Assembly: GCA_017623255.1 (NCBI GenBank) | Contig: JAGAPL010000076.1 | Span: 3,252-67,251 of the forward strand | DNA length: 64,000 bases | Direction of reading: 5' to 3' | Source of the DNA: Clostridia bacterium | GTDB taxonomy: Bacteria; Bacillota; Clostridia; Oscillospirales; CAG-272 | Part shown: piece after piece, positions 1,026-21,619 of the stretch | Position numbering within the stretch: position 1 is the stretch's first letter | Layout: each line of letters begins with the position of its first letter | Made by a program: the position numbers and the translations under genes | The notes under the pieces: generated by a model | Database searches by the model: none | The model's input: only the letters and a program-made list of their open reading frames with translations | What the model was told of the DNA's origin: nothing

Positions 1026-2642
1026 TTATAAAAATGTGCGACAATGATAAGAAACATTCAAATCCTTTGATTTTTGTAAAAGGGCAATGCATATCCAGAA
1101 AAACGGAGCGCATATTACTATGCTGATATTGAAAAACGCTTGAATCAAATAGCATAAAGTAACGGCAAAAAATATAAGTGTGAATTCATTTTTTAAAAGC
1201 GTTTTAAATGATTTTAAAGCGACAGAAATCAGAAAGGCAAGGTATAAAATCAAACCAATCAAACCGTTTGTAAAAAATATACTTAAATACTCATTATGCG
1301 GATTATCCAAAACAAGTGATGAGCTGTTGTAGTTGCCGTTTGAGCATTCCATAAAAACCGTTGCATAGCTTCCCAGTCCTGTGCCGAAAACAGGTGATTT
1401 AAGGGCAATTTTAAAGCTCTCAACCCAAATTCCTATACGCCCTGTACCCGAATTCATTGTGATTTTTCCATGTAACAAATCTGCAATTTCTGAAAGTAAA
1501 TTCTTTGTAAAGCCTGAATCAGAGTCTGCAAAGCTGTAATTGTAAATACAAATCAAAATAATTGATACCACAATTATTTCAGCCACCACTACGATATACC
1601 AAAGATTGACCCGTATGATTTTCTCAGGATTTTTCTTCAACTGTATAAAGCCAACTGCCAAAAGTATCAAACCAAGAATAAGTGAAATCCAAAACAGAAA
1701 TGAAAATGAAAGAGAAACGTTTGTCTTTTGTGCTTGTTGGATATATTCCAAATTTATTAACGCACGCAATGAACAAGCAAAAACGATTGAAAACATTAAA
1801 AACAGTGATTTATATAACAGAACGCCTTTTTTAAGTAAAACAGGAAGCAGAATGAAAAACAGCGTTATGTATGCAATATTTCCCGAGTTCACTTCAATCA
1901 AAAATACCGAATAAGTATTTAAGAAAACAGAAAACAGAATCAGTGCCGACAATAATCGGGAAGTATTTAAGAACAAATAAGTGAGATTGATCAGCGGTAA
2001 GGTTATGCAAAATACGCATGAAAGCAAATCAATATTACCAATCGTTGAAGCGAACATATAAATACCGCCAACGCCGCCATCAGGGAATAGCCAAAAAGGA
2101 TTATATCCAAAACTTTGGATAATAGTTATAATTGACATCACACAAACGCTGATTGTCACTAAATATAGATGCACCTTTTTAAAACTACCATATTTGCTAA
2201 TGAGTAAAAATATCAAAACGTATAAAGACAATGTCAAAAAGCCGTCATACCTGCCGTATCCAAATATAAAGGACGACATTCCGCTTGGGTTTTCAATATT
2301 TTTATACGGGGATAGTAAATAGGATATTACCGAAAATAACAGAAAACATAACAGAAAAAACTCCGCCTTGTTTTCACCAATATTCAATGAAATTCTCGGT
2401 TTATACCCATCAAGCAAAAGTCCGCAAAAGGAATATAAAACACTTGCAAAAAATAAAAGTGTAAAAACAAGAAACAAAACATATTTAGTGCGCGTTAAAT
2501 TGGAGTAGTTTATGATAAATAAGGGGAAAACGAAGAACATTGACATTAAATAGATTTGTGATATAAAACTAAAATCTTTTTTCATCAGTTTTTCGTATGA
2601 TTTATTTTCTGAGACAGATCCAATCTTCTTAATAATAAGCAC
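1026..2642 (-). CDS. O-antigen ligase / Wzy-like polytopic membrane protein
   Basis: This 538-aa ORF is very hydrophobic with more than 10 predicted TM segments. The C-terminal third carries NPHNEYLSIFFTNGLIGLILYLAFL, which is typical of the Wzy_C / O-antigen ligase domain. Confidence 0.6.
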   Translation of the reverse strand: MLIIKKIGSVSENKSYEKLMKKDFSFISQIYLMSMFFVFPLFIINYSNLTRTKYVLFLVFTLLFFASVLYSFCGLLLDGYKPRISLNIGENKAEFFLLCFLLFSVISYLLSPYKNIENPSGMSSFIFGYGRYDGFLTLSLYVLIFLLISKYGSFKKVHLYLVTISVCVMSIITIIQSFGYNPFWLFPDGGVGGIYMFASTIGNIDLLSCVFCITLPLINLTYLFLNTSRLLSALILFSVFLNTYSVFLIEVNSGNIAYITLFFILLPVLLKKGVLLYKSLFLMFSIVFACSLRALINLEYIQQAQKTNVSLSFSFLFWISLILGLILLAVGFIQLKKNPEKIIRVNLWYIVVVAEIIVVSIILICIYNYSFADSDSGFTKNLLSEIADLLHGKITMNSGTGRIGIWVESFKIALKSPVFGTGLGSYATVFMECSNGNYNSSSLVLDNPHNEYLSIFFTNGLIGLILYLAFLISVALKSFKTLLKNEFTLIFFAVTLCYLIQAFFNISIVICAPFFWICIALLQKSKDLNVSYHCRTFL

Positions 2643-2903
2643 CTCCCCTAAAAAATATACTTCTTTCCATATTTATTATACTACTGTAAGCTATATGTTT
2701 CAAGCAATCTAAGGCTTTTTTATGATTAATTATATCTTCTTATATCTTTAAACGACAGAAGCTGCAATAAAATATTTTGTGCGTAAACGACCTCGTTACG
2801 CTGACAGTCAACATATTGTGAGGCTACTTTAAATTGCAAACTATATACGCATATTTTTTTAACAAAAACAAACACTAACCATATTAAACTTGGAGGGTGA
2901 AGT

Positions 2904-4202
2904 ATGGAATCTGTTTGGGAGAAGGATGTGCCGAAAGTTTGCTTTGATAAAATGGATGGCAAAAAAAGCACTGATGTACTGATAATCGGCGGAGGAATTG
3001 CGGGGATTTTATGCGCACATAAGCTAAAAAGCACCGGTGTTGCTTGTATGCTTGTGGAGGCTGCAGAAATATGTAACGGTATAACCAAAAACACCACGGC
3101 AAAGATCACTCTTGGTCATGGACTGATTTACGATAAACTGATTAAACGATTTGGGGAAGAAAAAGCTCGTATTTATCTTCAGTCACAGATCAGGGCGGGG
3201 GAAGAATATGCGCAGCTTTGTGAGAATATTGATTGCGATTATGAAAATAAGGATTCCTATGTCTATTCTCTTGATAACCGCAAAAAGATTGAAAAGGAAT
3301 TGGATGCTTTGAATCTTCTGGGCATAAGAGCAGAGTTTTCTGATGCAAGTGAACTACCTATAGAAGTTGCAGGTGCGGTGTGTGTGAGAAATCAAGCGCA
3401 GTTTCATCCTTTAAAATTTCTATATACAATCGCCAAAAATCTGCCCATATATGAACACACGAAGGTTTTGGAGCTTATGCCAAATAAGGCAATCACCAAT
3501 CGTGGTGAGATAACCTATAAAAAGCTCATCATTGCAACTCATTTTCCTATTTTGAATAAACACGGCAGCTATTTTTTGAAGCTATATCAGCATCGTTCTT
3601 ATGTAATTGCTCTGAAAGGTGCAGATAATGTGGCCGGAATGTATGTAGATGAATCGGATATAGGTCTTTCCTTCAGAAGCTATGGTGATTTGTTGCTTCT
3701 TGGTGGCGGTGGTCATAGAACGGGAAAGCAGGGAGGATGCTGGCAAGAGCTGGAAAAATTCGCAAGAGAGCATTACAAAGGCGCACAAATAGCTGAAAAA
3801 TGGGCAACGCAGGATTGTATGACGTTGGATGACGTTCCGTATATAGGACAGTATTCCAAGAGTACTCCCGAGGTTTTCGTTGCAACAGGATTTAACAAAT
3901 GGGGAATGACGAATGCTATGGTTGCGGCAAATATCCTATGTGACCTTATGCAAGGAAAGCCAAATCCTCACTCCGAGGTGTTCTCTCCATCACGAACAAT
4001 CCTTCGGCCGCAGCTTGCAATAAATGCAATAGAATCAACATTGGGACTTATCACTCCCACTGCGCCAAGATGTCCTCACCTTGGCTGCGCCCTAAAATAT
4101 AACCGTGCCGAGCACTCCTGGGATTGCCCCTGCCACGGCTCCCGATTTACAGAAGACGGTGAGCTTATTGACAATCCTGCAACGGATGATAAGCAAATGT
4201 AA
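2904..4202 (+). CDS. FAD-dependent oxidoreductase fused to a C-terminal Rieske [2Fe-2S] domain (B. subtilis YhfW-like)
   Basis: The RBS GGAGGGTG lies upstream. The N-terminus has the dinucleotide fold VLIIGGGIAGILCA, and the C-terminus has the Rieske motif CPHLGC...(17 aa)...CPCHGSRF. Confidence 0.8.
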   Translation: MESVWEKDVPKVCFDKMDGKKSTDVLIIGGGIAGILCAHKLKSTGVACMLVEAAEICNGITKNTTAKITLGHGLIYDKLIKRFGEEKARIYLQSQIRAGEEYAQLCENIDCDYENKDSYVYSLDNRKKIEKELDALNLLGIRAEFSDASELPIEVAGAVCVRNQAQFHPLKFLYTIAKNLPIYEHTKVLELMPNKAITNRGEITYKKLIIATHFPILNKHGSYFLKLYQHRSYVIALKGADNVAGMYVDESDIGLSFRSYGDLLLLGGGGHRTGKQGGCWQELEKFAREHYKGAQIAEKWATQDCMTLDDVPYIGQYSKSTPEVFVATGFNKWGMTNAMVAANILCDLMQGKPNPHSEVFSPSRTILRPQLAINAIESTLGLITPTAPRCPHLGCALKYNRAEHSWDCPCHGSRFTEDGELIDNPATDDKQM

Positions 4203-10165: not shown

Positions 10166-10537
10166 TTATTCTTCGTAAAAAATGTAATCAGGGAAGCTTT
10201 CTGCAAGCATTCTAAACCCACCCGTTATGGCAGAAAAACATTTGTCTGCCTCAGAACCACCTTCGCAAATGAAACGGATATTGGCATAACCCGAATGTAT
10301 GTCACTTATAAGATTTGAAACAAGTCCGTTTTTTTCGGCTTCTGTAAGATAGTAATGCAAAGTCAGGATAAGAATTGAAATGGCAGAGCAGAGAATATCA
10401 TTTCCTCTCTTTGCAAATCCCGTGTGCCCTGAACATTCAAGAATATGTTCATCGTAATAGGTATTATGCGTTATATATGTCAATGGAATTTCCTTTCGTT
10501 TTTCGAAGTTGGTGTAAAACCTCTTCCTTGCCTTCAA
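10166..10537 (-). CDS. phage-type Prp-like cysteine protease (DUF464 family)
   Basis: ECSGHTGFAKRGNDILCSAISIL matches the His/Cys catalytic signature GHAG...G.DIVCAAVS of Prp. It sits directly after a portal gene, as in Firmicute phage head modules. The 5' end overlaps the portal gene by 74 nt, so the true start may be a downstream non-ATG codon. Confidence 0.6.
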   Translation of the reverse strand: MKARKRFYTNFEKRKEIPLTYITHNTYYDEHILECSGHTGFAKRGNDILCSAISILILTLHYYLTEAEKNGLVSNLISDIHSGYANIRFICEGGSEADKCFSAITGGFRMLAESFPDYIFYEE

Positions 10538-12023
10538 AATCCATCATTGAAAGACAAATTTTTGCAGCTTCTGAATTTTCTTCCCTGAACATACCAAGCT
10601 CATATAGCTTGCAGGCAAGCTCATTTTCAACAGCTTTTGAAAAAGCAGTTTTTTTATGTGCGTATACCTTAATATCATAAACCGGAGATTTCAGAACATT
10701 GTTTTGTATTGAAATAAAATCAATACCGTCATTTCCTGTTATACGATAGCAGTGGGGCAGAGTATAAAACTGACGTATCAGTTCAATTATCAGTTTACAT
10801 ATTTCCTCAAAAGAGCGATAAGAGGCAGAAATCATATCTCTTGTCGTTTTACTTCCTGCCTCCTGAAGCGCGGCGATAGCACTGGCTGCTGTAACTCCAC
10901 CCGTAACAGTACCCTGTGAGAAATCTCTGTTTCCGGATGTTTCCTTAAGCTCGTCTATCTTGTGCTGAAGGATGGAAACATAAACTGCAGGCAGAGTGGG
11001 AACATCAATTGGCATAATGGCAGAGTTGGGATCCCCTGAGCCGGAATAGTGAACAAATGGCTTGTCCCAGTCGGCAAACTCTTTTTCATTGAGCGGTCCG
11101 TCAGCACGAACAAAAAATCTTCGCCCCGATGCCATTTTTGCGTTCTTTACAATAGACGATCCCAGTGCGTCTATCTCACTTTGTGTACCCTTCATGGCAT
11201 CAATTATTCCAAATCCGCAGGGACTTGCTTTTACAGGATACAGAGAGTCAAATACAAAAGGATATTTGCCGTGATCGTAAAATCCGCGCTCCTTGTATAA
11301 AGGATCATTTTCCGAGGCATAAAGCAGTATACCGTTAACAAATTTGCAGTAATGAACTATTGTTTTTGTACCGATCCTCTTTTTGTAGTACCAGTCAATG
11401 ACAGCGGATTTATCGCTTGTGTCAATAGCGTCATCATATATGTATCTGGCTGTGTCTATAGAAGGCGAGGAAAGACTGTCTGTTGTTGCAGGATAACGAG
11501 AGGATAGCGTCTCATTGTCCCATAGAGCTACGTGGAAAACATTTTTTGAATTCTGAATGTTCGTGATGCCCGGCTCCCAAAATAGATTGAGGATGTCAAT
11601 ATTGTGAATATCAATGCTTCCGAGACCGAAATCAAGTGAGGGATTCCAAAAAACGCCGTAACACCCCGTTCCGTTTTTTAGCTTGTCAAACCAGCACTGA
11701 GAATAAACGCTTTCAAAGTTTGTTTCTTCAAGAATACAAGGAATCACCTGATCAAGCAACTTGGCTGTGTCTGTGTCTTTCTTCTCTCTGGGAAGGCAGG
11801 CGCAGGTAGGTATATTATCCATAGCATCAGCGTGCTTGTTTATCACAGAATTAAAAAGCCAGGCGGAAGGTGTTGTGTCTTTTTTCGTTTGGTGTCGAAT
11901 TCTCCACCATTCTTCATTTTCAATAAGTCTTGCTTCAAGATTAGCTTTTGCAGCCTTATATTGCTGCAGTATTTCAGTTGCGCGAAGTATCGAGGCATCG
12001 CTGATAATATTTTTTTCTTTCAT
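10464..12023 (-). CDS. phage portal protein
   Basis: The 519-aa ORF lies immediately downstream of the terminase large subunit. Its size, acidic C-terminus and overall character are typical of SPP1-type portals. Confidence 0.75.
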   Translation of the reverse strand: MKEKNIISDASILRATEILQQYKAAKANLEARLIENEEWWRIRHQTKKDTTPSAWLFNSVINKHADAMDNIPTCACLPREKKDTDTAKLLDQVIPCILEETNFESVYSQCWFDKLKNGTGCYGVFWNPSLDFGLGSIDIHNIDILNLFWEPGITNIQNSKNVFHVALWDNETLSSRYPATTDSLSSPSIDTARYIYDDAIDTSDKSAVIDWYYKKRIGTKTIVHYCKFVNGILLYASENDPLYKERGFYDHGKYPFVFDSLYPVKASPCGFGIIDAMKGTQSEIDALGSSIVKNAKMASGRRFFVRADGPLNEKEFADWDKPFVHYSGSGDPNSAIMPIDVPTLPAVYVSILQHKIDELKETSGNRDFSQGTVTGGVTAASAIAALQEAGSKTTRDMISASYRSFEEICKLIIELIRQFYTLPHCYRITGNDGIDFISIQNNVLKSPVYDIKVYAHKKTAFSKAVENELACKLYELGMFREENSEAAKICLSMMDFEGKEEVLHQLRKTKGNSIDIYNA

Positions 12024-12034
12024 TGATTACTCCT

Positions 12035-13402
12035 TTAATATGAAAATTGTGAATATCGTTTGTTTGTCGTGCTCAGCGGGTCAATATCTGGTAAGGATAT
12101 TTGTTCACTGATATTAGGTTTTATCGGTCTTGACATACAGAAGTATCGGAAGGAATCAGCAAAATGATCTTCTTGGCTTGTGTCAAGATCCTCAGGGGAA
12201 TGTTCGCTGTAATTAAGCAGTGGTAAAGTGCGGATTGCGTGGCGGCAGGTGTTAAAAAAATAAACCATCGGTTTTCCGTCGTTATCAAAGCTGAGTCTGT
12301 AATGGCATTGCATCCAGCCCGGTATACGCTTGTTGTCGCCGGGTTGAAAATATACGAAATTCCTGTCAGCAGATTCGATAATAGCCTCTCCTCTTGAAGC
12401 ATCCCAAATAGAAGGATCGGCAACTCCGAAAATTTGCTTTCCGGCAAGCCATCTGTGTTCATTTTCCAATCTCTTTATTTCGGAAAAAATCTTGTCAGGC
12501 GGCCATTTTATACCTTCGTTAGCCTCTGTGCAGCCATATAGCTGCAAGATGAGATAGGCTCTGCCATCGTAGTCAATTGCCCACCAATCGCAAGAAAAAG
12601 GCTTGGAATAGCCGAAGTCAAAGCTTCTGTAAATTCTCCAGTCACGAGGTATTTCAAAAGGCTCAATAACGTGTGTCCAAATCCGATCTTTGTAATGATT
12701 GGGATCATTTCGAAATTCTTCAAAAAACTGTCCCTCAAAAATATTCCAATCTCCTTCAAGCCATGCTTTTCGAAGCTTACCCGGCAGGGCTTCAAGCTTT
12801 TTAACGTACTCAGGATCTTTTTCAAGAAGCGCATTGTTATCACCCACAAGGCTCTTGATAAAAACGTAGTCATTGTTGCTTTGAGGGGTGTCAATAAAAA
12901 GTTCTTTGACCCAGTTGTGCCCAACACCGCCCGGATTACAGGTCAAATAAACTCTTTTTGGAAAATTGTTTACTCCACGCACGCATGCGCGTATACGATC
13001 GAACATTTCGCGTGTAAATTGAGTTGCTTCATCAATAAAAACAACGTCAGCTTCAGTTCCTTGAAATTTGTCTAAATCTCGTACGTTTCTGCAAGAGGCA
13101 AATTTCACACTTGATCCGTTAAGATAGACAAGTTCCTTTTTTGATTCTGAATAGGTTGCAACAGAAGCGCAAATCCTGCACATTTCATTTATATGGTTTG
13201 CGCGCAATTCGGGATAAGTTTTTCTGATTATAAGAATCTTTATTCCGGGATATTTAAGCGCTAAAAGCAAAGCTTTTGTGCGCACCGCCCAGCTTTTTCC
13301 TCCTCCTCTTGCACCGCCGAATGCTGTGTAAGTTGCGTCGGATAATAAAAAAAGTTTTTGCTTGTCTGACGGCGGCGAAAGCTTCAGCTCTATGTTGCCC
13401 AT
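12035..13402 (-). CDS. phage terminase large subunit
   Basis: The Walker A motif FGGARGGGKSW is followed by the KILIIRKTYPEL and VVFIDEATQF ATPase motifs. The C-terminal half is nuclease-like. Confidence 0.85.
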   Translation of the reverse strand: MGNIELKLSPPSDKQKLFLLSDATYTAFGGARGGGKSWAVRTKALLLALKYPGIKILIIRKTYPELRANHINEMCRICASVATYSESKKELVYLNGSSVKFASCRNVRDLDKFQGTEADVVFIDEATQFTREMFDRIRACVRGVNNFPKRVYLTCNPGGVGHNWVKELFIDTPQSNNDYVFIKSLVGDNNALLEKDPEYVKKLEALPGKLRKAWLEGDWNIFEGQFFEEFRNDPNHYKDRIWTHVIEPFEIPRDWRIYRSFDFGYSKPFSCDWWAIDYDGRAYLILQLYGCTEANEGIKWPPDKIFSEIKRLENEHRWLAGKQIFGVADPSIWDASRGEAIIESADRNFVYFQPGDNKRIPGWMQCHYRLSFDNDGKPMVYFFNTCRHAIRTLPLLNYSEHSPEDLDTSQEDHFADSFRYFCMSRPIKPNISEQISLPDIDPLSTTNKRYSQFSY

Positions 13403-13796: not shown

Positions 13797-14024
13797 ATGT
13801 GTATAGCAACTGTAAGGAATATGACAGGTGCAATGAAGATAAGAGATGCACTTGTCAGGAGCGGAATAAAAGCAGAAATAGTGTCTGTTGATGCATCACT
13901 GACCCGACGCGGATGTGCTTATGGGGTAAGTTTTCCTTGCGAAAAAGAAGCTCAGGTGAAACGTATCCTGGCATCAAAAAGAATGGAATACGGAGTGCTT
14001 ATTGGCGGAAGGAACGGCTATTGA
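13797..14024 (+). CDS. DUF3343 (putative S/Se carrier-like) protein
   Basis: The 75-aa protein has the pattern ATVRNMTGAMKIRDALVRSGIKAEIVSVDASLTRRGCAYGV typical of DUF3343. It sits next to a class V aminotransferase-fold desulfurase, which is the usual context. Confidence 0.65.
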   Translation: MCIATVRNMTGAMKIRDALVRSGIKAEIVSVDASLTRRGCAYGVSFPCEKEAQVKRILASKRMEYGVLIGGRNGY

Positions 14025-14025
14025 G

Positions 14026-15146
14026 ATGAGGGAGCTTATATACCTTGATAATGCTGCTACAACTATGAAAAAGCCGCAGTCTGTAAAGACAGCCGTAATA
14101 AAATGGTGTCGGTGCGGAAATGCCGGCAGAGGCAGCCACAGAGCTGCTCTGGCGGCTGCTGAAAAGATCTATGAATGTCGTGAGCTTGCAGCAAGACTAT
14201 TCGGTGCAAAAGCAGAAAATGTAGTGTTCACAAATAATGCAACAACGGCTTTGAATATGGCAATCAAAGGTTTTATACCCGATAACAGCCATATAATAAC
14301 AAGTGATTTTGAGCATAACAGCGTGCGTCGTCCTGTTTTGAAGCTTTGCAGGGACAACGGTTGCCGAAGAGATGTGTTTGTCAGCGAAAGGCAGGATATG
14401 ATACTTCGTAATGTTGAAAAGATGATAAACAATGAAACATCCGCCTTGGTTTGCTTACACCGATCGAATATAACGGGCAGGACTATGCCCATAAAAAAGA
14501 TTGGTGAATTGTGCAGAAGAAAAGGAATAGCCTTTATAGTAGATGCTTCGCAAAGTGCGGGAAATGCGGATATTGATATAGAAAGGGATCATATTGATAT
14601 TCTCTGCTTAGCAGGTCATAAAGGACTGTACGGCCCTCAGGGAACGGGGCTTCTTATTATGCGTGATGGAGTAAATATAAAACCTTTACTTGAAGGTGGA
14701 AGCGGAACAGATTCAAAGAAGAAGATATGCCTGATTACTATCCTGACAGGCTTGAAGCCGGCACTTTATCTGCTATGGCGATAGCAGGCCTGGGCGAAGG
14801 AATAAGATTCGTGTTGAGAACCGGCCCGAAGAATATTCACAAAAGAGAAAGAGAGCTGTTCGTGAGGTGCAGAAATGCACTGGATAATAAGAAAATAAGG
14901 ATATACGACGATAATTGTGAAGGGGCAAATCTCCTTTTTAATATAAGAGGAAAAACTGCCGCAGAGGTTTCGGCTGCTCTTGATAGAAAGGGAATATGCA
15001 CTCGTCCGGGGCTTCATTGTGCACCTGACGCACATTATTCTTTGGGAACTCAGCAAGATGGTGCGGTGAGGGCAAGCTTCAGTTGTTTCACAACTGAAAA
15101 GGAAATAGACATTTTTGCAAGAGAAGTAATAAATCTTACAAAATAA
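14026..15146 (+). pseudogene. cysteine desulfurase family protein (class V PLP enzyme) interrupted by a -1 nt frameshift
   Basis: The N-terminal part (LIYLDNAATT...LAGHKGLYGPQGTGLL...LLEGGSGTDS) runs in one frame to a stop at 14782-14784. The continuation (EEDMPDYYPDRLEAGTL...HCAP) lies in the other frame from about 14718. The two frames join if the run aaa at 14715-14717 is read as aaaa. Confidence 0.7.
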
Positions 15147-15150
15147 ACAA

Positions 15151-15176
15151 AAGCCTTTCTCACGTGAGAAAGGCTT
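15151..15176 (+). terminator. hairpin after the desulfurase gene
   Basis: The near-perfect palindrome aagcctttctcac/gtgagaaaggctt is present. The T-tail is weak. Confidence 0.45.
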
Positions 15177-15182
15177 CATCTG

Positions 15183-15211
15183 TTGACAAAAAATGCGGGT
15201 TGTGATATACT
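15183..15211 (+). promoter_or_regulatory. sigma-A promoter of the MarR/reductase/AcnX operon
   Basis: TTGACA (15183-15188), a 17-nt spacer, then TATACT (15206-15211). Confidence 0.55.
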
Positions 15212-15244
15212 CAAGTGTTGTAACAACAACAAGTGAGGAGAGTT

Positions 15245-15682
15245 ATGGAAGAAAGATTTAAAACGTTTACCTTGCTTATGAACGGCATAAACAGAAGCAT
15301 TCACAAATTGAAAACAGCAGCAATGGCCGAGTATCAATTGAAGAGCTCCCATGTTTCCTGTTTGTACTATCTGTATAAGAAAGAAATGACCGCAAAAGAG
15401 CTTTGCGATATTTGTGATGAAGATAAAGCAAATATTTCACGCGCAGTCAAATATCTTGAAGGAAACGGATTTCTTGAATGTAAATCAAAAGCTCAGAAAA
15501 AGTATCAAACTCCCATTTGTTTAACGGAAAAGGGAAGAGATGTTGCAGGCAGGTTAGTTGCCAAAATAGATAGCGTGCTCAGCGCAGCAGGAAACGGCGT
15601 TAGTGAAGAAAACAGAATAATAATGTATCAAAGCCTTGCGGTGATAGCGAAAAATCTCGAAGAACTTTGTGAAAAAAATTAA
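15245..15682 (+). CDS. MarR-family transcriptional regulator
   Basis: The ATG at 15245 follows GAGGAGAG. The wHTH segment reads MTAKELCDICDEDKANISRAVKYLEGNGFLE. Confidence 0.8.
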   Translation: MEERFKTFTLLMNGINRSIHKLKTAAMAEYQLKSSHVSCLYYLYKKEMTAKELCDICDEDKANISRAVKYLEGNGFLECKSKAQKKYQTPICLTEKGRDVAGRLVAKIDSVLSAAGNGVSEENRIIMYQSLAVIAKNLEELCEKN

Positions 15683-15706
15683 TTTTATATAAAGGAAACA
15701 GACGTT

Positions 15707-17776
15707 ATGGAAAAGATGGACCCCAAGTACGAAGCCCTGTTTACTCCTTGGAAAATAGGCAACGTAGAGATCAAAAACAGAATAGTTATGTGTCCTATGG
15801 GAGGAACCTCACTTTTTGGCTGGTTTGAGTTGGGCGGTTGTCATTTTGACCGCGAAGCTGCTAAGTTGTTTATTGAAAGAGCGAACAACAACGTTGGACT
15901 TATTATTCCCGGAATCGCACCCCTGCGTGATACGTTCTGGGGTAAATGGCTTTGGCAGAACCCCAAAATGTTTGAGGAACTTAAAGAGTTTATGGATGAG
16001 ATCCATAAGACAGGCGCAAAGCTGTTCGTTCAGCTCACAGCAGGTATGGGTCGCTCATGGGCTATCACCGAGCTTGTGGCGCCGCTTCATAAAAATAAAT
16101 TTACACGTGCAATTATAAAGCCTATTATTGATACATCACATGAATTGGCTTCACCCAGCCCTCAGCCTTCCCGTTGGGCGCACGATATCCAGTGCCCTGA
16201 GATGACAGTTGAGCAGATTCATGAAATTATCGAAGCATTTGCAAAAACAGCTAAGCTTTGCCGCGATGCAGGTGTAGACGGTGTTGAAGTTCATGCGGTT
16301 CACGAAGGTTATCTTCTTGACCAGTTTGCAATAGAGTTCTTCAATAAGCGAACTGACGAATATGGCGGAAGCTTTGAAAACCGCTATCGTTTTGCAGCCG
16401 AAGTAGTTCGTGCTATTAAAGAAGCTTGTGGTGAAGATTATCCTGTTTCTCTGCGTTATTCTGTTGAGTCCAAAATGAAGGGCTTCTGCGAGGGTGCAAT
16501 GCCCGGTGAGGAATACACAGAAGTGGGCAGAAATATGGAAGAATCTGAAAAGGCTGCTAAATATCTGCAGGATGCAGGATACGATATGCTCAACGCAGAT
16601 AACGGTACATACGATTCATGGTATTGGGCTCATCCCCCTATGTATATGCCTGAAAACTGTAACCTTGACGATGTGGCTCATATCAAGCAGTTCGTTGATA
16701 TTCCCGTAGTATGTGCAGGTAGAATGGACGCAGAGGTTGGCGCTAAAGCCGTTGCAGACGGCAGAATTGACGCGGTTGGTGTAGCTAGACAGTTCCTTGT
16801 TGACCCCCAGTGGATCACTAAGATGATCGAGGACAGACTTGAAGATATCAAGCCCTGTATCTGCTGCCATTCAGGCTGCTTCAATTTCTCATCTTCTAAG
16901 GGACATGCTAATACTCAGGATCTTACCGACACTATGGGACTTGCGCGTTGCGCGCTTAATCCTGAAACAATGCAGTCCAAGAAGTATAAGATAACACCTG
17001 CTAAAAAGCAGAAGAATATTGCAGTTATCGGCGGCGGTATCGGTGGTATGGAAGCTGCTATCGTTTGCGCAAAGCGCGGACATAATGTAACTCTTTATGA
17101 AAAGAGCGGTAAGCTTGGCGGCGTGTTTATAGCAGCAGCAGCTCCTTCCTTTAAAGAAAAGGACAGAGCGCTCATTGCTTGGTATATCCGTGAGGTTGCA
17201 AAGCATCCTATCACAGTTAAGATGAACACAGAAATCAAGGATATTAAAGAGCTTGATGCAGATGAGATCATCATTGCAACAGGCGCGGTTGCTAAGAAAA
17301 TACCCGTTAAGGGCGCAGAAGGAGCAATTGAAGCAGTTGATTATCTGCTCGGTAATGCTCAGGTTGGCGAAAACGTAACTGTTATCGGCGGCGGACTCAC
17401 AGGTTGCGAAATTGCTTATGATCTTTATCTCCAGGGCAAAAAGCCTACTATCGTTGAGATGCAGGATGACCTTGTAACAACTCCCGGTATCTGCCTTGCA
17501 AACACAAGCTATCTCCGTGATTTCTTCAAAACAAATAAAGTGCCCGTTCATCTTGAAACAAAGCTTTCAGAAATCACAGACAGTGGTGTCAAGTTGGTAG
17601 ATAAGGACGGAAAAGCATTTGAAATTGCAGCAGATTCAGTTATTATGTCTGTTGGATATAACCCCGCTCCTGTTGCACCCAAGCAGAAGCATGTTCACGT
17701 TATCGGTGATGCTGATAAGGTTGGTAACCTCAGAACAGTTATCTGGGGAGCTTGGGACGTTGCTATGAAACTTTGA
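15707..17776 (+). CDS. 2-enoate reductase / 2,4-dienoyl-CoA reductase family flavoenzyme (OYE-type FMN barrel + Fe-S + FAD/NAD(P) domain)
   Basis: The protein has KNRIVMCPMGG and VEVHAVHEGYLLDQFAIEFFNKRTDEYGGSFENRYRF (an OYE barrel). It also has CICCHSGC...C (Fe-S motif) and the dinucleotide folds IAVIGGGIGGME and VTVIGGGLTGCE. It is 689 aa long. Confidence 0.8.
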   Translation: MEKMDPKYEALFTPWKIGNVEIKNRIVMCPMGGTSLFGWFELGGCHFDREAAKLFIERANNNVGLIIPGIAPLRDTFWGKWLWQNPKMFEELKEFMDEIHKTGAKLFVQLTAGMGRSWAITELVAPLHKNKFTRAIIKPIIDTSHELASPSPQPSRWAHDIQCPEMTVEQIHEIIEAFAKTAKLCRDAGVDGVEVHAVHEGYLLDQFAIEFFNKRTDEYGGSFENRYRFAAEVVRAIKEACGEDYPVSLRYSVESKMKGFCEGAMPGEEYTEVGRNMEESEKAAKYLQDAGYDMLNADNGTYDSWYWAHPPMYMPENCNLDDVAHIKQFVDIPVVCAGRMDAEVGAKAVADGRIDAVGVARQFLVDPQWITKMIEDRLEDIKPCICCHSGCFNFSSSKGHANTQDLTDTMGLARCALNPETMQSKKYKITPAKKQKNIAVIGGGIGGMEAAIVCAKRGHNVTLYEKSGKLGGVFIAAAAPSFKEKDRALIAWYIREVAKHPITVKMNTEIKDIKELDADEIIIATGAVAKKIPVKGAEGAIEAVDYLLGNAQVGENVTVIGGGLTGCEIAYDLYLQGKKPTIVEMQDDLVTTPGICLANTSYLRDFFKTNKVPVHLETKLSEITDSGVKLVDKDGKAFEIAADSVIMSVGYNPAPVAPKQKHVHVIGDADKVGNLRTVIWGAWDVAMKL

Positions 17777-17794
17777 TGAAAGGACTTTAATAAA

Positions 17795-19078
17795 ATGGCT
17801 ATGATCTTAAATGATGAACAGCAGGCGATACTTAACGGCTCCAAAGGCGAAACAATGGCAAAGGTTATGAAAACTCTTGTTATGTATGGCGAAACCTTTG
17901 GTGCAGAGCGCCTTGTTCCCGTAACAAGCAAATATAATCATCTTGTAACATCATTCGGACTCAAGGTAATGAGCCCCGTGTATGACCTTATGGCGCAGAT
18001 CCTGGACGCAGGCGTGTCCTCTTCACAGAAATTCTCTGTGGACCCCCGTCCTCTTGATAAGAACGTTCCTGCAAACTTCCTTCAGAATCTTGTTTTCAAT
18101 AAGTTTATGTATACAAAGCAGGATTTCTATGAAGGACAGCTTGAAAAGCTTGGCCTTATGAACGAAGATGCATTCTCTTGCACTTGCTATATGGACGAAG
18201 TTGGAAATAAGCCTCAGAAGGGTGAGATACTCAGCTGGGCTGAATCCTCAGCAGTAGTTTATGCAAACTCCGTTCTTGGAGCAAGATGTAACCGCAACTC
18301 AGGTATTATCGACCTGATGGGTTCTATCGTTGGTTATGTTCCCGAGTTTGGTCTTCTCACAGATGAAGGAAGAAAAGCAACATGGGTTGTTAAGATTGAA
18401 ACAACCAAAAAGCCTGAGGCTCAGCTCCTCGGCTCTGCCATCGGTATGAAGGTTATGGAAGACGTTCCTTATGTTGTTGGCCTTGATAAGTGGATAGGTA
18501 ATGAGCTTGATGACAGCGCTTGCACATATCTTAAGGATTTCGGCGCAGCAACAGCTTCAAACGGCGCAGTAGGTCTTTATCATATAGCAAACCTCACACC
18601 TGAAGCAGTAGAGCTTGGCGAAAGCCTTATAGCTGAAGGCGCAAAGGAATACGTTGTAACAGATGCCGAGCTTGAAAGAGTAAAGAATGAGTACCCTGTA
18701 ATCTGGAAGAATAAGGACGCAACTCCCAAGCTTTGCTTTATGGGATGCCCCCATATGTCTCTCCAGCAGCTTAAGGATTGGACAGATAAGGTTGAAGCAG
18801 GTCTCAAGGAAGCAGGCAACAAAAAGGTTCTTATTCCCACAGTATTCACAGCAGCACCCGGAGTGCTTAAAGAGTTTGAAAAAACACCCTATGCAGCAAG
18901 ACTTAAGGCAACAGGTGTTATCACATCATATATTTGTCCCCTTATGTATATGAACAATCCTCTTTGCAAGAAGATGCCCGTTATAACATCTTCCAATAAG
19001 CTTCGTACATATACAACAGCACGTTATTATACAGATGATGAAATTCTTATGCAGATCACAAAAGGAGGTAAAAACTGA
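17795..19078 (+). CDS. aconitase X, catalytic (large) subunit (DUF521)
   Basis: The N-terminus MILNDEQQAILNGSKGETMAKVMKTLVMYGETFGAERLVPV and the 427-aa size match the DUF521/AcnX catalytic domain. Confidence 0.75.
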   Translation: MAMILNDEQQAILNGSKGETMAKVMKTLVMYGETFGAERLVPVTSKYNHLVTSFGLKVMSPVYDLMAQILDAGVSSSQKFSVDPRPLDKNVPANFLQNLVFNKFMYTKQDFYEGQLEKLGLMNEDAFSCTCYMDEVGNKPQKGEILSWAESSAVVYANSVLGARCNRNSGIIDLMGSIVGYVPEFGLLTDEGRKATWVVKIETTKKPEAQLLGSAIGMKVMEDVPYVVGLDKWIGNELDDSACTYLKDFGAATASNGAVGLYHIANLTPEAVELGESLIAEGAKEYVVTDAELERVKNEYPVIWKNKDATPKLCFMGCPHMSLQQLKDWTDKVEAGLKEAGNKKVLIPTVFTAAPGVLKEFEKTPYAARLKATGVITSYICPLMYMNNPLCKKMPVITSSNKLRTYTTARYYTDDEILMQITKGGKN

Positions 19079-19521
19079 TGAAAACATTTCAGGGAAGAGT
19101 AGTAGCACCCGGACAGGTAACAGCAAAAGCGCTTGTATCTCACGGTGGTCTTAACACACTTGCATCCTTCCAGAATGCGCTCCAGTTTGGAGATAAGCAG
19201 GCAAAATGCGGAGATCAGAATAACCCCGATCTGTATGGAAAGCCTATGGTAGGCACAGCACTTTGCCTCCCTCAGACAATCGGCTCAACAACAGGCGGTC
19301 TCGTGCTTTATTGCGCGGCTGCTATGGGCCGTCAGCCTGCATGTATGCTTTTCTCAAAGCCTATCGACTCTCTTGCAGCAGCAGGTGCCATCCTTGCTGA
19401 TGTTTGGGTAGATAGTGTAACAATGCCCGTTGTAGATAGCCTTGGTGAAGAATTCCTTGATTATGTTAAGGACGGAATGACAATCACAGTTAAAGAAAAC
19501 GGCATTGTTGAAGTAGACTAA
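19078..19521 (+). CDS. aconitase X, swivel (small) subunit (DUF126)
   Basis: MKTFQGRVVAPGQVTAKALVSHGGLNTLASF is a typical DUF126 start. Its ATG shares one nucleotide with the upstream TGA (tgatg at 19076-19080), and AAAGGAGG lies upstream. Confidence 0.75.
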   Translation: MKTFQGRVVAPGQVTAKALVSHGGLNTLASFQNALQFGDKQAKCGDQNNPDLYGKPMVGTALCLPQTIGSTTGGLVLYCAAAMGRQPACMLFSKPIDSLAAAGAILADVWVDSVTMPVVDSLGEEFLDYVKDGMTITVKENGIVEVD

Positions 19522-19537
19522 ATCAAATCTCCATAAT

Positions 19538-19590
19538 AAAAAGCACGCTCATTGAACCAATTTGGTACGGAGTGTGCTTTTTGTTTGTAT
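19538..19590. terminator. bidirectional terminator between the AcnX operon and ispE
   Basis: The stem pairs aaagcacgctc (19540-19550) with gagtgtgcttt (19570-19580), with an inner accaa/ttggt pairing. It is flanked by an A-run and a T-run. Confidence 0.75.
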
Positions 19591-20461: not shown

Positions 20462-21619
20462 TCAGTGCACCAACCTAATCAGGAAATTTTGTTTAACGTC
20501 AACTGCAACAAGAGGGCAAAGCTCCTGACAGCAATAACAAAGAATACATTTGTTTCTGTTAATTTTAGCTTGCTTTTTACCATTTTTCTCTACAAGTTCA
20601 ATGGTGTGCATAGGGCAGGAGCGAACACATTCTCCGCAGCCTACGCACTTATTCTTGTTTATATAAGGCTTAGGACTGAAATAGTTTGCCAATTTGCCGT
20701 CAAAAAGATTGGGCAGCTGATTTAAAAATGTTTTTCTCTGTGCATCAGGTGCCATAACATCACTTATAACAAGATCATCAATCTTATCGCCAACAATTTC
20801 CAACTGGTCGGCTGAAGCAGGACAAAGTCCTCTTTCTTTTGCCAAAGTAACCATAGGGGCTGTTCCTTCGAAACCAAGGATTTTTTCTGCCGCAAGGTCA
20901 AGACAATAAGGTGAAAGAGAAGTGAGCACAACATCGAATTTTCTTGGGGTGCCGCCTGTAGGTCCGTTGCCTTCCATGCCGAGGATGCCGTCACAAACGT
21001 TGATAAGCGTCTTTGATTTTCTCAGCATTTCTGAAAGATCGCAAAGCATACTGCGAAAATCCTTTTGATCGCTGTAAGCTGCGTGCATTTCAAATTTTTC
21101 AACACCGGGCACAACGCCGAAATAGTTCTTCTGTGCGCAGGAAATTTTTGTGAGTGAGTGGGTTTTCAGCTTGCAAACGTTCAGAATAACATCAGCTTCT
21201 GCAATAGGTGATATAACGTTAAAGCGCTTGCAGGTAACTCCTTCGGGAAACATCATTATTTGAGCATCTGTGGAATAATTGAGGGAGGCTCCGCAGCTTT
21301 CGTCAATGCCGCAAACTGAGTAGTGGTTTTTGATTGTGGCAGTCGTGTAAGGTCCGCCCGCGCTTTCTGCCACAATAAGAGTAGTGTTTTCTGCTCCGAA
21401 CATCTTTAAAGCGGCTATTGCGCTTTGCAGAAAAACAGGATGGGTTGTTGCAGCAGCTTCCGGCTTTTTGGAGATAACAAGATTTGGTTTGATTGCTATT
21501 TTCTTGTTCTCAAGCATATCGCGGGTAACACCTGCAGCCAGCATCTGTTTATAGAGCAGTTCGGTCAGATTTTCATCGTATTTTGTGTATTTGTTAATTG
21601 CAACAGTGTAGTTTTTCAA
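20462..21619 (-). CDS. DUF362 domain protein with C-terminal 2x[4Fe-4S] ferredoxin domain
   Basis: The core IAIKPNLV...THP is typical of DUF362. The C-terminus has CVGCGECVRSCP and CILCYCCQELCP. The start is TTG at 21619 after GAGGT, and the stop lies 1 nt before the ispE start. Confidence 0.7.
   Translation of the reverse strand: MKNYTVAINKYTKYDENLTELLYKQMLAAGVTRDMLENKKIAIKPNLVISKKPEAAATTHPVFLQSAIAALKMFGAENTTLIVAESAGGPYTTATIKNHYSVCGIDESCGASLNYSTDAQIMMFPEGVTCKRFNVISPIAEADVILNVCKLKTHSLTKISCAQKNYFGVVPGVEKFEMHAAYSDQKDFRSMLCDLSEMLRKSKTLINVCDGILGMEGNGPTGGTPRKFDVVLTSLSPYCLDLAAEKILGFEGTAPMVTLAKERGLCPASADQLEIVGDKIDDLVISDVMAPDAQRKTFLNQLPNLFDGKLANYFSPKPYINKNKCVGCGECVRSCPMHTIELVEKNGKKQAKINRNKCILCYCCQELCPLVAVDVKQNFLIRLVH

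Follow-up and report, generated by a model that had tools for sequence, protein, structure and literature searches.

Aconitase X beside an ene-reductase in a putatively MarR-controlled clostridial operon: a candidate module for the reductive dehydroxylation of 3-hydroxy acids

What might a clostridial bacterium gain by encoding an iron-sulfur (Fe-S) dehydratase of the aconitase X (AcnX) family directly beside a flavoenzyme that reduces carbon-carbon double bonds? The question is raised by an operon in a 64,000-nucleotide stretch of DNA (hereafter, the window) from a member of the Clostridia (Oscillospirales, CAG-272; GenBank assembly GCA_017623255.1, contig JAGAPL010000076.1, positions 3,252 to 67,251), in which a marR regulator gene is followed by a gene for a 2-enoate-reductase-type enzyme and by the genes for the large and small subunits of AcnX. 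Within the aconitase superfamily no branch is less well understood than AcnX, for which two activities are known. The components of the operon belong to known families and the logic of dehydrating first and reducing next is familiar from the carnitine (Cai) and bile-acid (Bai) systems. A full-text literature search found no paper that links AcnX to an ene-reductase or gives a clostridial AcnX a function, in agreement with the statement in the initial annotation of this DNA that no described pathway is known to use such a pair of enzymes. The reading that we favor, with middling confidence, is that the operon might specify a MarR-repressed, two-step route by which a carboxylic acid loses a beta-hydroxyl group, reductive in outcome and independent of coenzyme A (CoA).

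The pairing extends well beyond the window. A scan of one genome per species returned at least 596 relatives of AcnX, and a metagenome scan contributed 80 further, more diverse loci, many of them from the human gut; the locus search used a 10-sequence alignment, an earlier alignment of 26 sequences having been too divergent. In the best 80 of the at least 596 relatives the AcnX large subunit is 78-93% identical to that of the window, and the carriers among these 80 include metagenome-assembled genomes labelled Oscillospiraceae, Acutalibacteraceae, Lachnospiraceae, Christensenellaceae and Mogibacterium, among others. A cultured carrier among the 80 is Mediterraneibacter agrestimuris DSM 111629 (locus L066). 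A locus was taken as fully evaluable when at least 2.3 kb lay on both sides of AcnX, and was counted when a reductase of the Old Yellow Enzyme (OYE)/Fe-S type directly adjoined AcnX. The adjacency, which the initial annotation had named as a test of its reading, proved to be strongly conserved across clostridial genomes, being found in 48 of 54 loci at an AcnX large-subunit identity of at least 78%. At 65-78% identity it is found in 17 of 25 loci, at 50-65% in 7 of 11 and below 50% in 2 of 9, so that the share of loci with an adjacent reductase falls as AcnX diverges, the pairing being seen down to ~44% identity.

The AcnX-linked reductases themselves form three lineages that are only 28-36% identical to one another. 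The first is the window type (54-93% identity), the second consists of proteins of ~757 aa that are 28-31% identical to the window type (loci L083, L099, L104, L111, L124, L153, L160, L171, L172 and others), and the third of proteins of 662 aa that are 36% identical (L088 and L093). The ~757-aa lineage, represented for example at positions 3713-5986 of L083, adjoins AcnX pairs that are 55-72% identical to those of the window. Both gene orders occur, with the reductase first in most loci and downstream of AcnX in several. Within the window type, the pairwise divergence of AcnX and that of the reductase are correlated (r = 0.66, 3160 pairs). Beyond the three genes the flanks are unrelated between genomes, and this, together with an AcnX identity of 78-93% across different family-level labels, suggests that the cassette might be horizontally mobile among Clostridia. 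The base composition and G+C content of the operon show no anomaly in the window and no sign of recent import.

The genes and signals of the operon are as follows, with positions counted from the first nucleotide of the window.

15151-15176, no strand assigned: candidate upstream boundary or insulator, a perfect palindromic hairpin with 13-nt arms between the cysteine-desulfurase gene and the operon, with a T-run on the minus strand
15183-15211, plus strand: sigma-70-type promoter TTGACA-17-TATACT with an extended -10 TG, matching at 11 of 12 positions
15216-15231, plus strand: candidate MarR operator TGTTGT-AACA-ACAACA, just 3' of the -10 box
15245-15682, plus strand: marR, 145 aa from the ATG (the listed open reading frame, or ORF, begins at GTG 15233)
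15707-17776, plus strand: reductase, 689 aa, OYE/4Fe-4S/FAD-NAD(P)H (ORF list and Pfam)
17795-19078, plus strand: AcnX large subunit, 427 aa (ORF list and Pfam)
19078-19521, plus strand: AcnX small (swivel) subunit, 147 aa (ORF list and Pfam)
~19535-19586, no strand assigned: bidirectional intrinsic terminator, common to the operon and the convergent ispE gene, with an A-run and a T-run at the hairpin edges

Every element lies where the initial annotation had placed it, and Pfam confirms all four gene assignments; the description of a self-contained operon given there stands as well. The gaps are 24 nt between marR and the reductase gene and 18 nt between the latter and the AcnX large-subunit gene, while the stop codon of the large and the start codon of the small subunit gene have one base in common (cTGATGa, an overlap of 1 nt). 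The ribosome-binding site AAAGGAGGT precedes the small-subunit start, and the small subunit is predicted to be translationally coupled to the large one through the TGATG overlap.

Which kind of AcnX is this? The large subunit matches PF04412 with 307.8 bits (cutoff 31.5) and the small subunit PF01989 with 45 bits (cutoff 27), and the tandem arrangement of the two genes completes the picture of an AcnX. The closest solved structure to the large subunit is the archaeal type IIb enzyme 7CNR (E 6e-37 for the sequence alone, 4e-66 with a profile), a sequence match that we regard as decisive for the predicted AcnX fold; the type I enzyme of Agrobacterium (At) is more distant. Roles of individual residues were taken from Watanabe et al. 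2021 (PMC8184944) and transferred by profile alignments to the solved Thermococcus kodakarensis (Tk) and At enzymes. By this mapping Cys129, Cys318 and Cys381 of the large subunit, the putative Fe-S ligands, correspond to Tk Cys110, Cys283 and Cys342. The putative catalytic and carboxylate- or 3-hydroxyl-binding residues are Glu150, Ser151, Ser152, Lys402 and Tyr406, of which Glu150 and Ser151 equal Tk Glu129 and Ser130, Lys402 equals Tk Lys361 and At Lys530, and Tyr406, in the K-x3-Y motif, equals At Tyr534. The small subunit carries the loop Gly69-Ser70-Thr71-Thr72, in which Ser70, the putative general base, and Thr71 equal Tk Ser62 and Thr63. Conservation is at least 98% for C129, C318, C381, E150, S151, K402 and Y406 among 173 large subunits, and for S70 and T71 among 156 small subunits. 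Another cysteine, C131, stands two residues past the ligand C129 (C129-T-C131; ~18185-18187) and is 94% conserved; it could be a fourth ligand or take part in a disulfide.

Three cysteines, at sites A, B and 1, form the type IIb pattern; type I has a C-x-C ligand pair, Cys508/Cys510, and type IIa only two cysteines (PMC8184944, PMC10040528). Since the three ligands occupy the same sites as in type IIb, the cluster is most likely a [4Fe-4S] cluster, and the Fe-S ligand alignment that the initial annotation had proposed speaks against the hydroxyproline type, the pattern being neither that of type I nor that of type IIa.

The suggestion that AcnX acts here as a dehydratase of cis-3-hydroxy-L-proline deserves attention, for this is the only characterized bacterial AcnX activity (PMC5144071, PMC8184944). 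With the At enzyme the window protein shares family, fold, the catalytic Ser/Glu/Lys/Tyr set and Thr72 of the small subunit, which matches At Thr72, and transporters for amino acids or peptides and an M18 aminopeptidase gene are occasional neighbors of the module. Landmark residues of the At enzyme, however, are replaced: At Asp203, which binds the ring nitrogen and whose alanine mutant is inactive, is Val51 here (or Leu50 in an alternative alignment), Cys510, a ligand of the At [2Fe-2S] cluster, is Leu383, and At Asn233 is Asp83. The profile alignment to At stops short of Trp35; Tk Leu27, which PMC8184944 treats as the counterpart of that residue, falls at the variable Gln32, and At Ile206 aligns to Phe54 or Ser53, as the loop shifts by one residue between alignments. 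The score against the NCBIfam equivalog NF051439 is 135 bits, far under its cutoff of 700, the cysteine pattern is that of type IIb, and no hydroxyproline cluster lies nearby. Among the neighbors of the module in ~170 loci, for which a Pfam scan took in 55 genes immediately upstream, 69 immediately downstream and 147 ORFs from the surroundings of a distant clade, lhp, hyp, prd and grd genes did not recur. The proposed link to Stickland metabolism finds no support either. A hydroxyproline branch appears to us highly improbable.

An even smaller chance, one that we would hardly entertain, attaches to the mevalonate-5-phosphate dehydratase of the modified mevalonate pathway, despite the closeness of the Thermococcus structure. 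Like the type IIb phosphomevalonate dehydratases (Aeropyrum pernix PMDh; TkAcnX, PDB 7CNR/7CNS), the window enzyme consists of two subunits encoded in tandem, has the three cysteine sites and the Glu-Ser, Lys and small-subunit Ser-Thr set, and is predicted to carry out a 2,3-dehydration of a 3-hydroxy acid. Unlike them it is bacterial, is paired with an ene-reductase, stands in no mevalonate-pathway context and lacks the phosphate-binding residues. The position of Tk Asn79 is occupied by Asp83 (97% Asp in the family), Tk Asn53 aligns to Lys57 or to a gap, and the phosphate loop Gly48-Val49-Ser50 of Tk is unmatched, with a register uncertain by one residue; in the loop that replaces it stands a family-invariant His49, and the small subunit, at about residues 22-45, departs from either solved type. 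It scores 42 bits with the DUF126 model PRK03955 (NF003046), whose cutoff is 163, and the loci, as distinct from whole genomes, hold no partner of the anhydromevalonate-phosphate decarboxylase/UbiX kind. The initial annotation was right to doubt a mevalonate role. Its argument, the ispE gene of the methylerythritol phosphate (MEP) pathway that adjoins the module in the window, carries little weight, for ispE is adjacent only there and in the 94%-identical locus L001, the flanks being different in all other loci.

Both roles were rejected on landmark residues and model scores, and by these the substrate is predicted to be neither cis-3-hydroxy-L-proline nor mevalonate-5-phosphate. The general catalytic set is kept and the residues specific to the two known activities are absent, so that the window AcnX fits the description of types IIc-f as a group, without a specific lettered subclass. 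These bacterial types lack the landmark residues of either known activity (Watanabe et al. 2021, PMC8184944), and their functions and cluster types remain unknown according to Komeyama et al. 2023 (PMC10040528).

The partner enzyme can be described with comparable detail. Pfam finds Oxidored_FMN (194 bits) and Pyr_redox_2 (113 bits), and the protein has the barrel, the four-cysteine motif and the domain of two dinucleotide folds that define the 2-enoate reductase/2,4-dienoyl-CoA reductase architecture. The N-terminal OYE barrel for flavin mononucleotide (FMN) carries His196, His199 and Tyr202, the cluster motif consists of C384, C387, C391 and C415, the motif for flavin adenine dinucleotide (FAD) is GxGxxG at 442-447, and the motif GGGxxG at 561-566 for the reduced nicotinamide nucleotide, NAD(P)H, is followed by a conserved Glu584. 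The four cysteines and the glycines G442/G444/G447 and G561-G563/G566 are at least 98% conserved among 93 reductase sequences. Glu584 lies after the second Rossmann strand, which we take to be a hint of NADH as the donor, and 2-enoates are the substrate class of this architecture (EC 1.3.1.31). The closest relatives in the PDB are 2-naphthoyl-CoA reductase (6QKG, E 3e-57) and E. coli FadH (1PS9, E 5e-54). The three-module architecture and the cofactor motifs are identical to those of the clostridial 2-enoate reductases, FadH, BaiCD and BilR; unlike the window enzyme, none of these has been described with an AcnX partner. The protein stays below every NCBIfam equivalog cutoff (BilR-long 375 of 750 bits, BaiCD 361 of 825, mycofactocin OYE 276 of 793), as do the two other AcnX-linked lineages, and since it reaches only about half of the BilR-long and BaiCD cutoffs it would represent a separate lineage without a characterized equivalog.

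How might the two enzymes cooperate? In the mechanism that we favor, the substrate of AcnX would be a free 3-hydroxy-carboxylate, whose carboxylate would be held by Ser151, Lys402, Tyr406 and Thr71 of the small subunit and whose 3-hydroxyl would be placed on the open iron and Glu150; with Ser70 of the small subunit taking the proton from C2, the loss of water would yield a 2-enoate. The reductase would pass electrons from NAD(P)H (probably NADH) through FAD and the cluster to FMN; the C2=C3 bond would thereby be reduced and the saturated acid formed, with regeneration of NAD+ in what might serve as a fermentative electron sink. MarR would bind TGTTG-N6-CAACA at the promoter and leave it in the presence of the substrate or of an acid related to it. 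Dehydration to a 2-enoate is proposed because in both characterized AcnX reactions a 3-hydroxy-carboxylate loses water by 2,3-elimination (PMC8184944) and the residues that they use are intact here. On a substrate without a heteroatom at C2, a reaction of this kind would yield a 2-enoate, to which the substrate class of the reductase architecture corresponds. The initial annotation had proposed a dehydratase that generates an activated double bond for the reductase to act upon, and this, we infer, is the best-supported mechanism; its variant by way of pyrroline-2-carboxylate is not supported, At Asp203 and Cys510 being replaced. Independence from CoA is favored by three observations: the module has no gene for a CoA ligase or transferase (and the neighbor scan found none conserved beside it), AcnX enzymes use free acids, and a carboxylate transporter of the TAXI-TRAP type accompanies an AcnX pair at one locus. 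At that locus (L012 4870-7937) the transporter, a solute-binding protein and a fused DctM-type membrane protein of 651 aa, replaces the reductase upstream of an AcnX pair that is 85% identical to that of the window.

The MarR part of this proposal can be followed in the DNA. The regulator, which matches Pfam MarR_2 with 29.6 bits (cutoff 27) and also HTH_27 and HTH_34, belongs to the winged-helix family, and orthologues are found upstream of the reductase in ~8-10 related loci. The 16-bp motif TGTTG-N6-CAACA is present in all nine marR promoters that were inspected, those of the window and of 8 related loci, where it lies just past the -10 box (in the window) or across the -35 box. In the window a longer imperfect repeat (15210-15237) encloses the palindrome and extends to the ribosome-binding site. 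Upstream of the reductase start (up to 800 bp) the motif occurs in 19 of 68 loci, with 21 sites where a background of 0.027 per kb would predict ~1.5, an enrichment of ~14-fold, and 13 of these 19 loci have no adjacent marR. A winged-helix domain and a palindrome at its own promoter, the two marks of an autoregulated repressor, are both present in the sequence. We regard the motif as the likely MarR operator, the comparative evidence for it being good.

Several considerations weigh against the coupled mechanism. Its main weakness is that a substantial minority of relatives lack an adjacent reductase, namely 6 of 54 where the identity is 78% or more and about one third where it is 50-78%; AcnX must therefore have a use on its own, or a partner elsewhere, in those genomes. 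A dedicated transporter is not conserved beside the module in the neighbor scan. The free-acid substrate is an assumption, since other members of the reductase family act on CoA esters, on steroids and on tetrapyrroles (FadH, BaiCD, BilR). The prevalence of the reductase-first gene order says nothing about the order of the reactions, and at loop 49-54 the residue mapping differs by one position between alignments.

The absence of an adjacent reductase in many genomes would also fit a co-localization without a common substrate, in which the flavoenzyme is a redox or repair partner of the oxygen-labile AcnX cluster, or both belong to a set of stress genes under common MarR regulation; MarR regulons are indeed often related to stress or xenobiotics. 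A 689-aa ene-reductase with three cofactors and an intact OYE active site would, however, be an unlikely chaperone for a cluster, and that three reductase lineages were recruited independently speaks for a catalytic connection. This explanation has, in our judgment, very little to recommend it.

The same gap in the pairing bears on another scheme, in which AcnX is a hydratase or isomerase whose substrate, an unsaturated (poly)carboxylate, would resemble for instance aconitate or oxalomesaconate, and the reductase acts earlier (for example on a dienoate) or on a branch. Reactions of the aconitase superfamily are reversible, and it is the direction of hydration that is assayed in PMC10040528. 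A relevant locus is L084 (1-13311), where an AcnX pair 47% identical to that of the window lies amid two LigB-type dioxygenase genes and genes for an aldehyde dehydrogenase, MFS transporters, a LysR regulator and an FAD hydroxylase; in such an aromatic ring-cleavage cluster a hydratase acting on a tricarboxylic enoate would fit, and this context hints that other AcnX subclasses hydrate ring-fission products. The reductase gene, moreover, comes first in most loci. The recruitment of three ene-reductase lineages beside AcnX is nevertheless explained most simply if the reductase consumes an enoate made by AcnX. With NAD(P)H as donor, the reductive direction of enoate reduction is strongly favored, which also counts against this scheme. 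We consider it unlikely, though by no means negligible, and return to the order in which AcnX dehydrates and the reductase follows.

What, then, might be the substrate of a dehydrating AcnX? Candidate classes are citrate-, citramalate- or malate-like acids, small 3-hydroxy acids (3-hydroxybutyrate, 3-hydroxypropionate), and carnitine-like cationic hydroxy acids. Hints among these are weak: the Asp83 of the window protein against the Asn of both solved enzymes, the methyltransferases of L088 and L097, and the context of L084, which would point to a citrate-like hydroxy-tricarboxylate there. For the idea of tricarballylate or aconitate as substrate, a literature search yielded nothing usable. 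The recurrent neighbors in the Pfam scan comprise MarR (8), polar-amino-acid ABC transporters (3), OPT transporters (3), GH2 (3), TAXI-TRAP (1) and the M18 aminopeptidase (4, probably one lineage), and this recurrence is too sparse for a substrate to be named from the neighborhood. At high-GC loci the ORF picking took antisense shadow ORFs, so that neighbors without a Pfam match there are no evidence of novel genes.

Carnitine would be a special case of the favored mechanism: crotonobetaine would arise by dehydration of L-carnitine (or of a related 3-hydroxy acid that is quaternary or cationic) on AcnX, and the reductase would convert it to gamma-butyrobetaine, as an alternative, free of CoA, to CaiB/CaiD/CaiA. 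In favor of this, carnitine belongs to the 3-hydroxy acids, and the family has Asp83, where the known enzymes have Asn, together with conserved aromatic residues. At locus L088, of the distant clade, the module is flanked by genes for dimethylamine and trimethylamine methyltransferases (2584-3969; 10189-13292) of the pyrrolysine type, with in-frame TAG triplets at 3628-3630 and 12789-12791 as the pyrrolysine codons; the same locus has an uninterrupted MttB gene above the NCBIfam cutoff and two sigma-54 activators. MtbB- and MttB-like ORFs are found at L097, and a URO-D-type methyltransferase at L094. This link to methyltransferases is nevertheless confined to a clade that shares only 41-44% identity with the window protein, and there to 2-3 of 6 loci, and the neighbor scan showed neither BCCT or Opu transporters nor MttB or bbu genes beside the window-type module. 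Many of the carriers, moreover, are organisms of the herbivore gut, and a full-text search found no supporting literature. We think that carnitine is quite improbable as the substrate.

Among known systems, the proposed dehydration and reduction by AcnX and the ene-reductase most resembles CaiD/CaiA in carnitine metabolism and BaiE with BaiCD/BaiH in bile-acid metabolism, in which water is removed to give an activated C=C bond that is then reduced, as an electron sink. Another likeness is to the bil operon, where a MarR regulator (BilQ) is coupled to an OYE-type reductase. The Cai and Bai systems, however, use dehydratases of the crotonase or SnoaL type and CoA esters or 3-oxo-steroids, whereas the dehydratase of the window is an Fe-S enzyme of the aconitase superfamily and the module has no CoA-activating gene.

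We tentatively go a step further, and suggest that the cassette could represent a third, undescribed AcnX activity hard-wired to an ene-reductase, that is, a CoA-independent beta-hydroxy-acid dehydroxylase module that is spreading horizontally among the Clostridia of the ruminant and human gut. If so, a physiological upstream partner would be at hand for the 2-enoate-reductase-type enzymes of Clostridia, for which a natural role has long been hard to name, the module might reveal a CoA-free electron-sink reaction, and, depending on whether the substrate is a citrate- or citramalate-like acid, 3-hydroxybutyrate or a carnitine-like compound, it could explain a gut transformation to which no enzymes have yet been assigned. 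The module also gives the type IIc-f enzymes a testable context, with a fixed partner that consumes NADH, a regulator with a candidate operator and at least one cultured carrier. Species-level genomes that carry it number at least several hundred, gut metagenomes of humans and ruminants hold it as well, and because it is so widespread the identity of its substrate would assign a function to a common gut-microbial gene set.

The expression signals of the operon in the window can be ranked in part by comparison. The start of marR is more likely the ATG at 15245 than the GTG at 15233, since it lies behind GAGGAGAG and gives a protein of 145 aa, as in the 94%-identical locus L001. Of 16 promoter-like sites in the region that was scanned, a class that is not over-represented (11.8 expected in shuffled sequence), the promoter at 15183-15211 ranks first; it is credible by its position and by the recurrence of TTGACA/TATAAT-like boxes upstream of marR in orthologous loci. 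The terminator hairpin folds with -23.9 kcal/mol (z -4.6) on the plus strand and -16.8 kcal/mol (z -3.1) on the minus strand, and ispE converges on it from 19597.

Some features of the flanks are peculiar to the window and its close relative L001. The Aminotran_5 (cysteine-desulfurase-type) gene upstream of the operon is split into overlapping ORFs (14002-14784 and 14727-15146), and the split is a frameshift or a sequencing error; the counterpart in L001 (4229-5344) is one intact gene for 371 aa. Farther upstream, on the minus strand (10464-13402), lie ORFs for a portal-like protein (519 aa) and a terminase-large-like protein (455 aa); the same block in L001 (378-3618) matches Pfam P22_portal, Terminase_6N/Terminase_3 and Prp peptidase, and may be a conserved prophage remnant or a block resembling a gene-transfer agent. 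Directly downstream of ispE the minus strand encodes a DUF362 protein with a C-terminal two-cluster ferredoxin domain (20462-21619), and the same pair of genes is found in L001.

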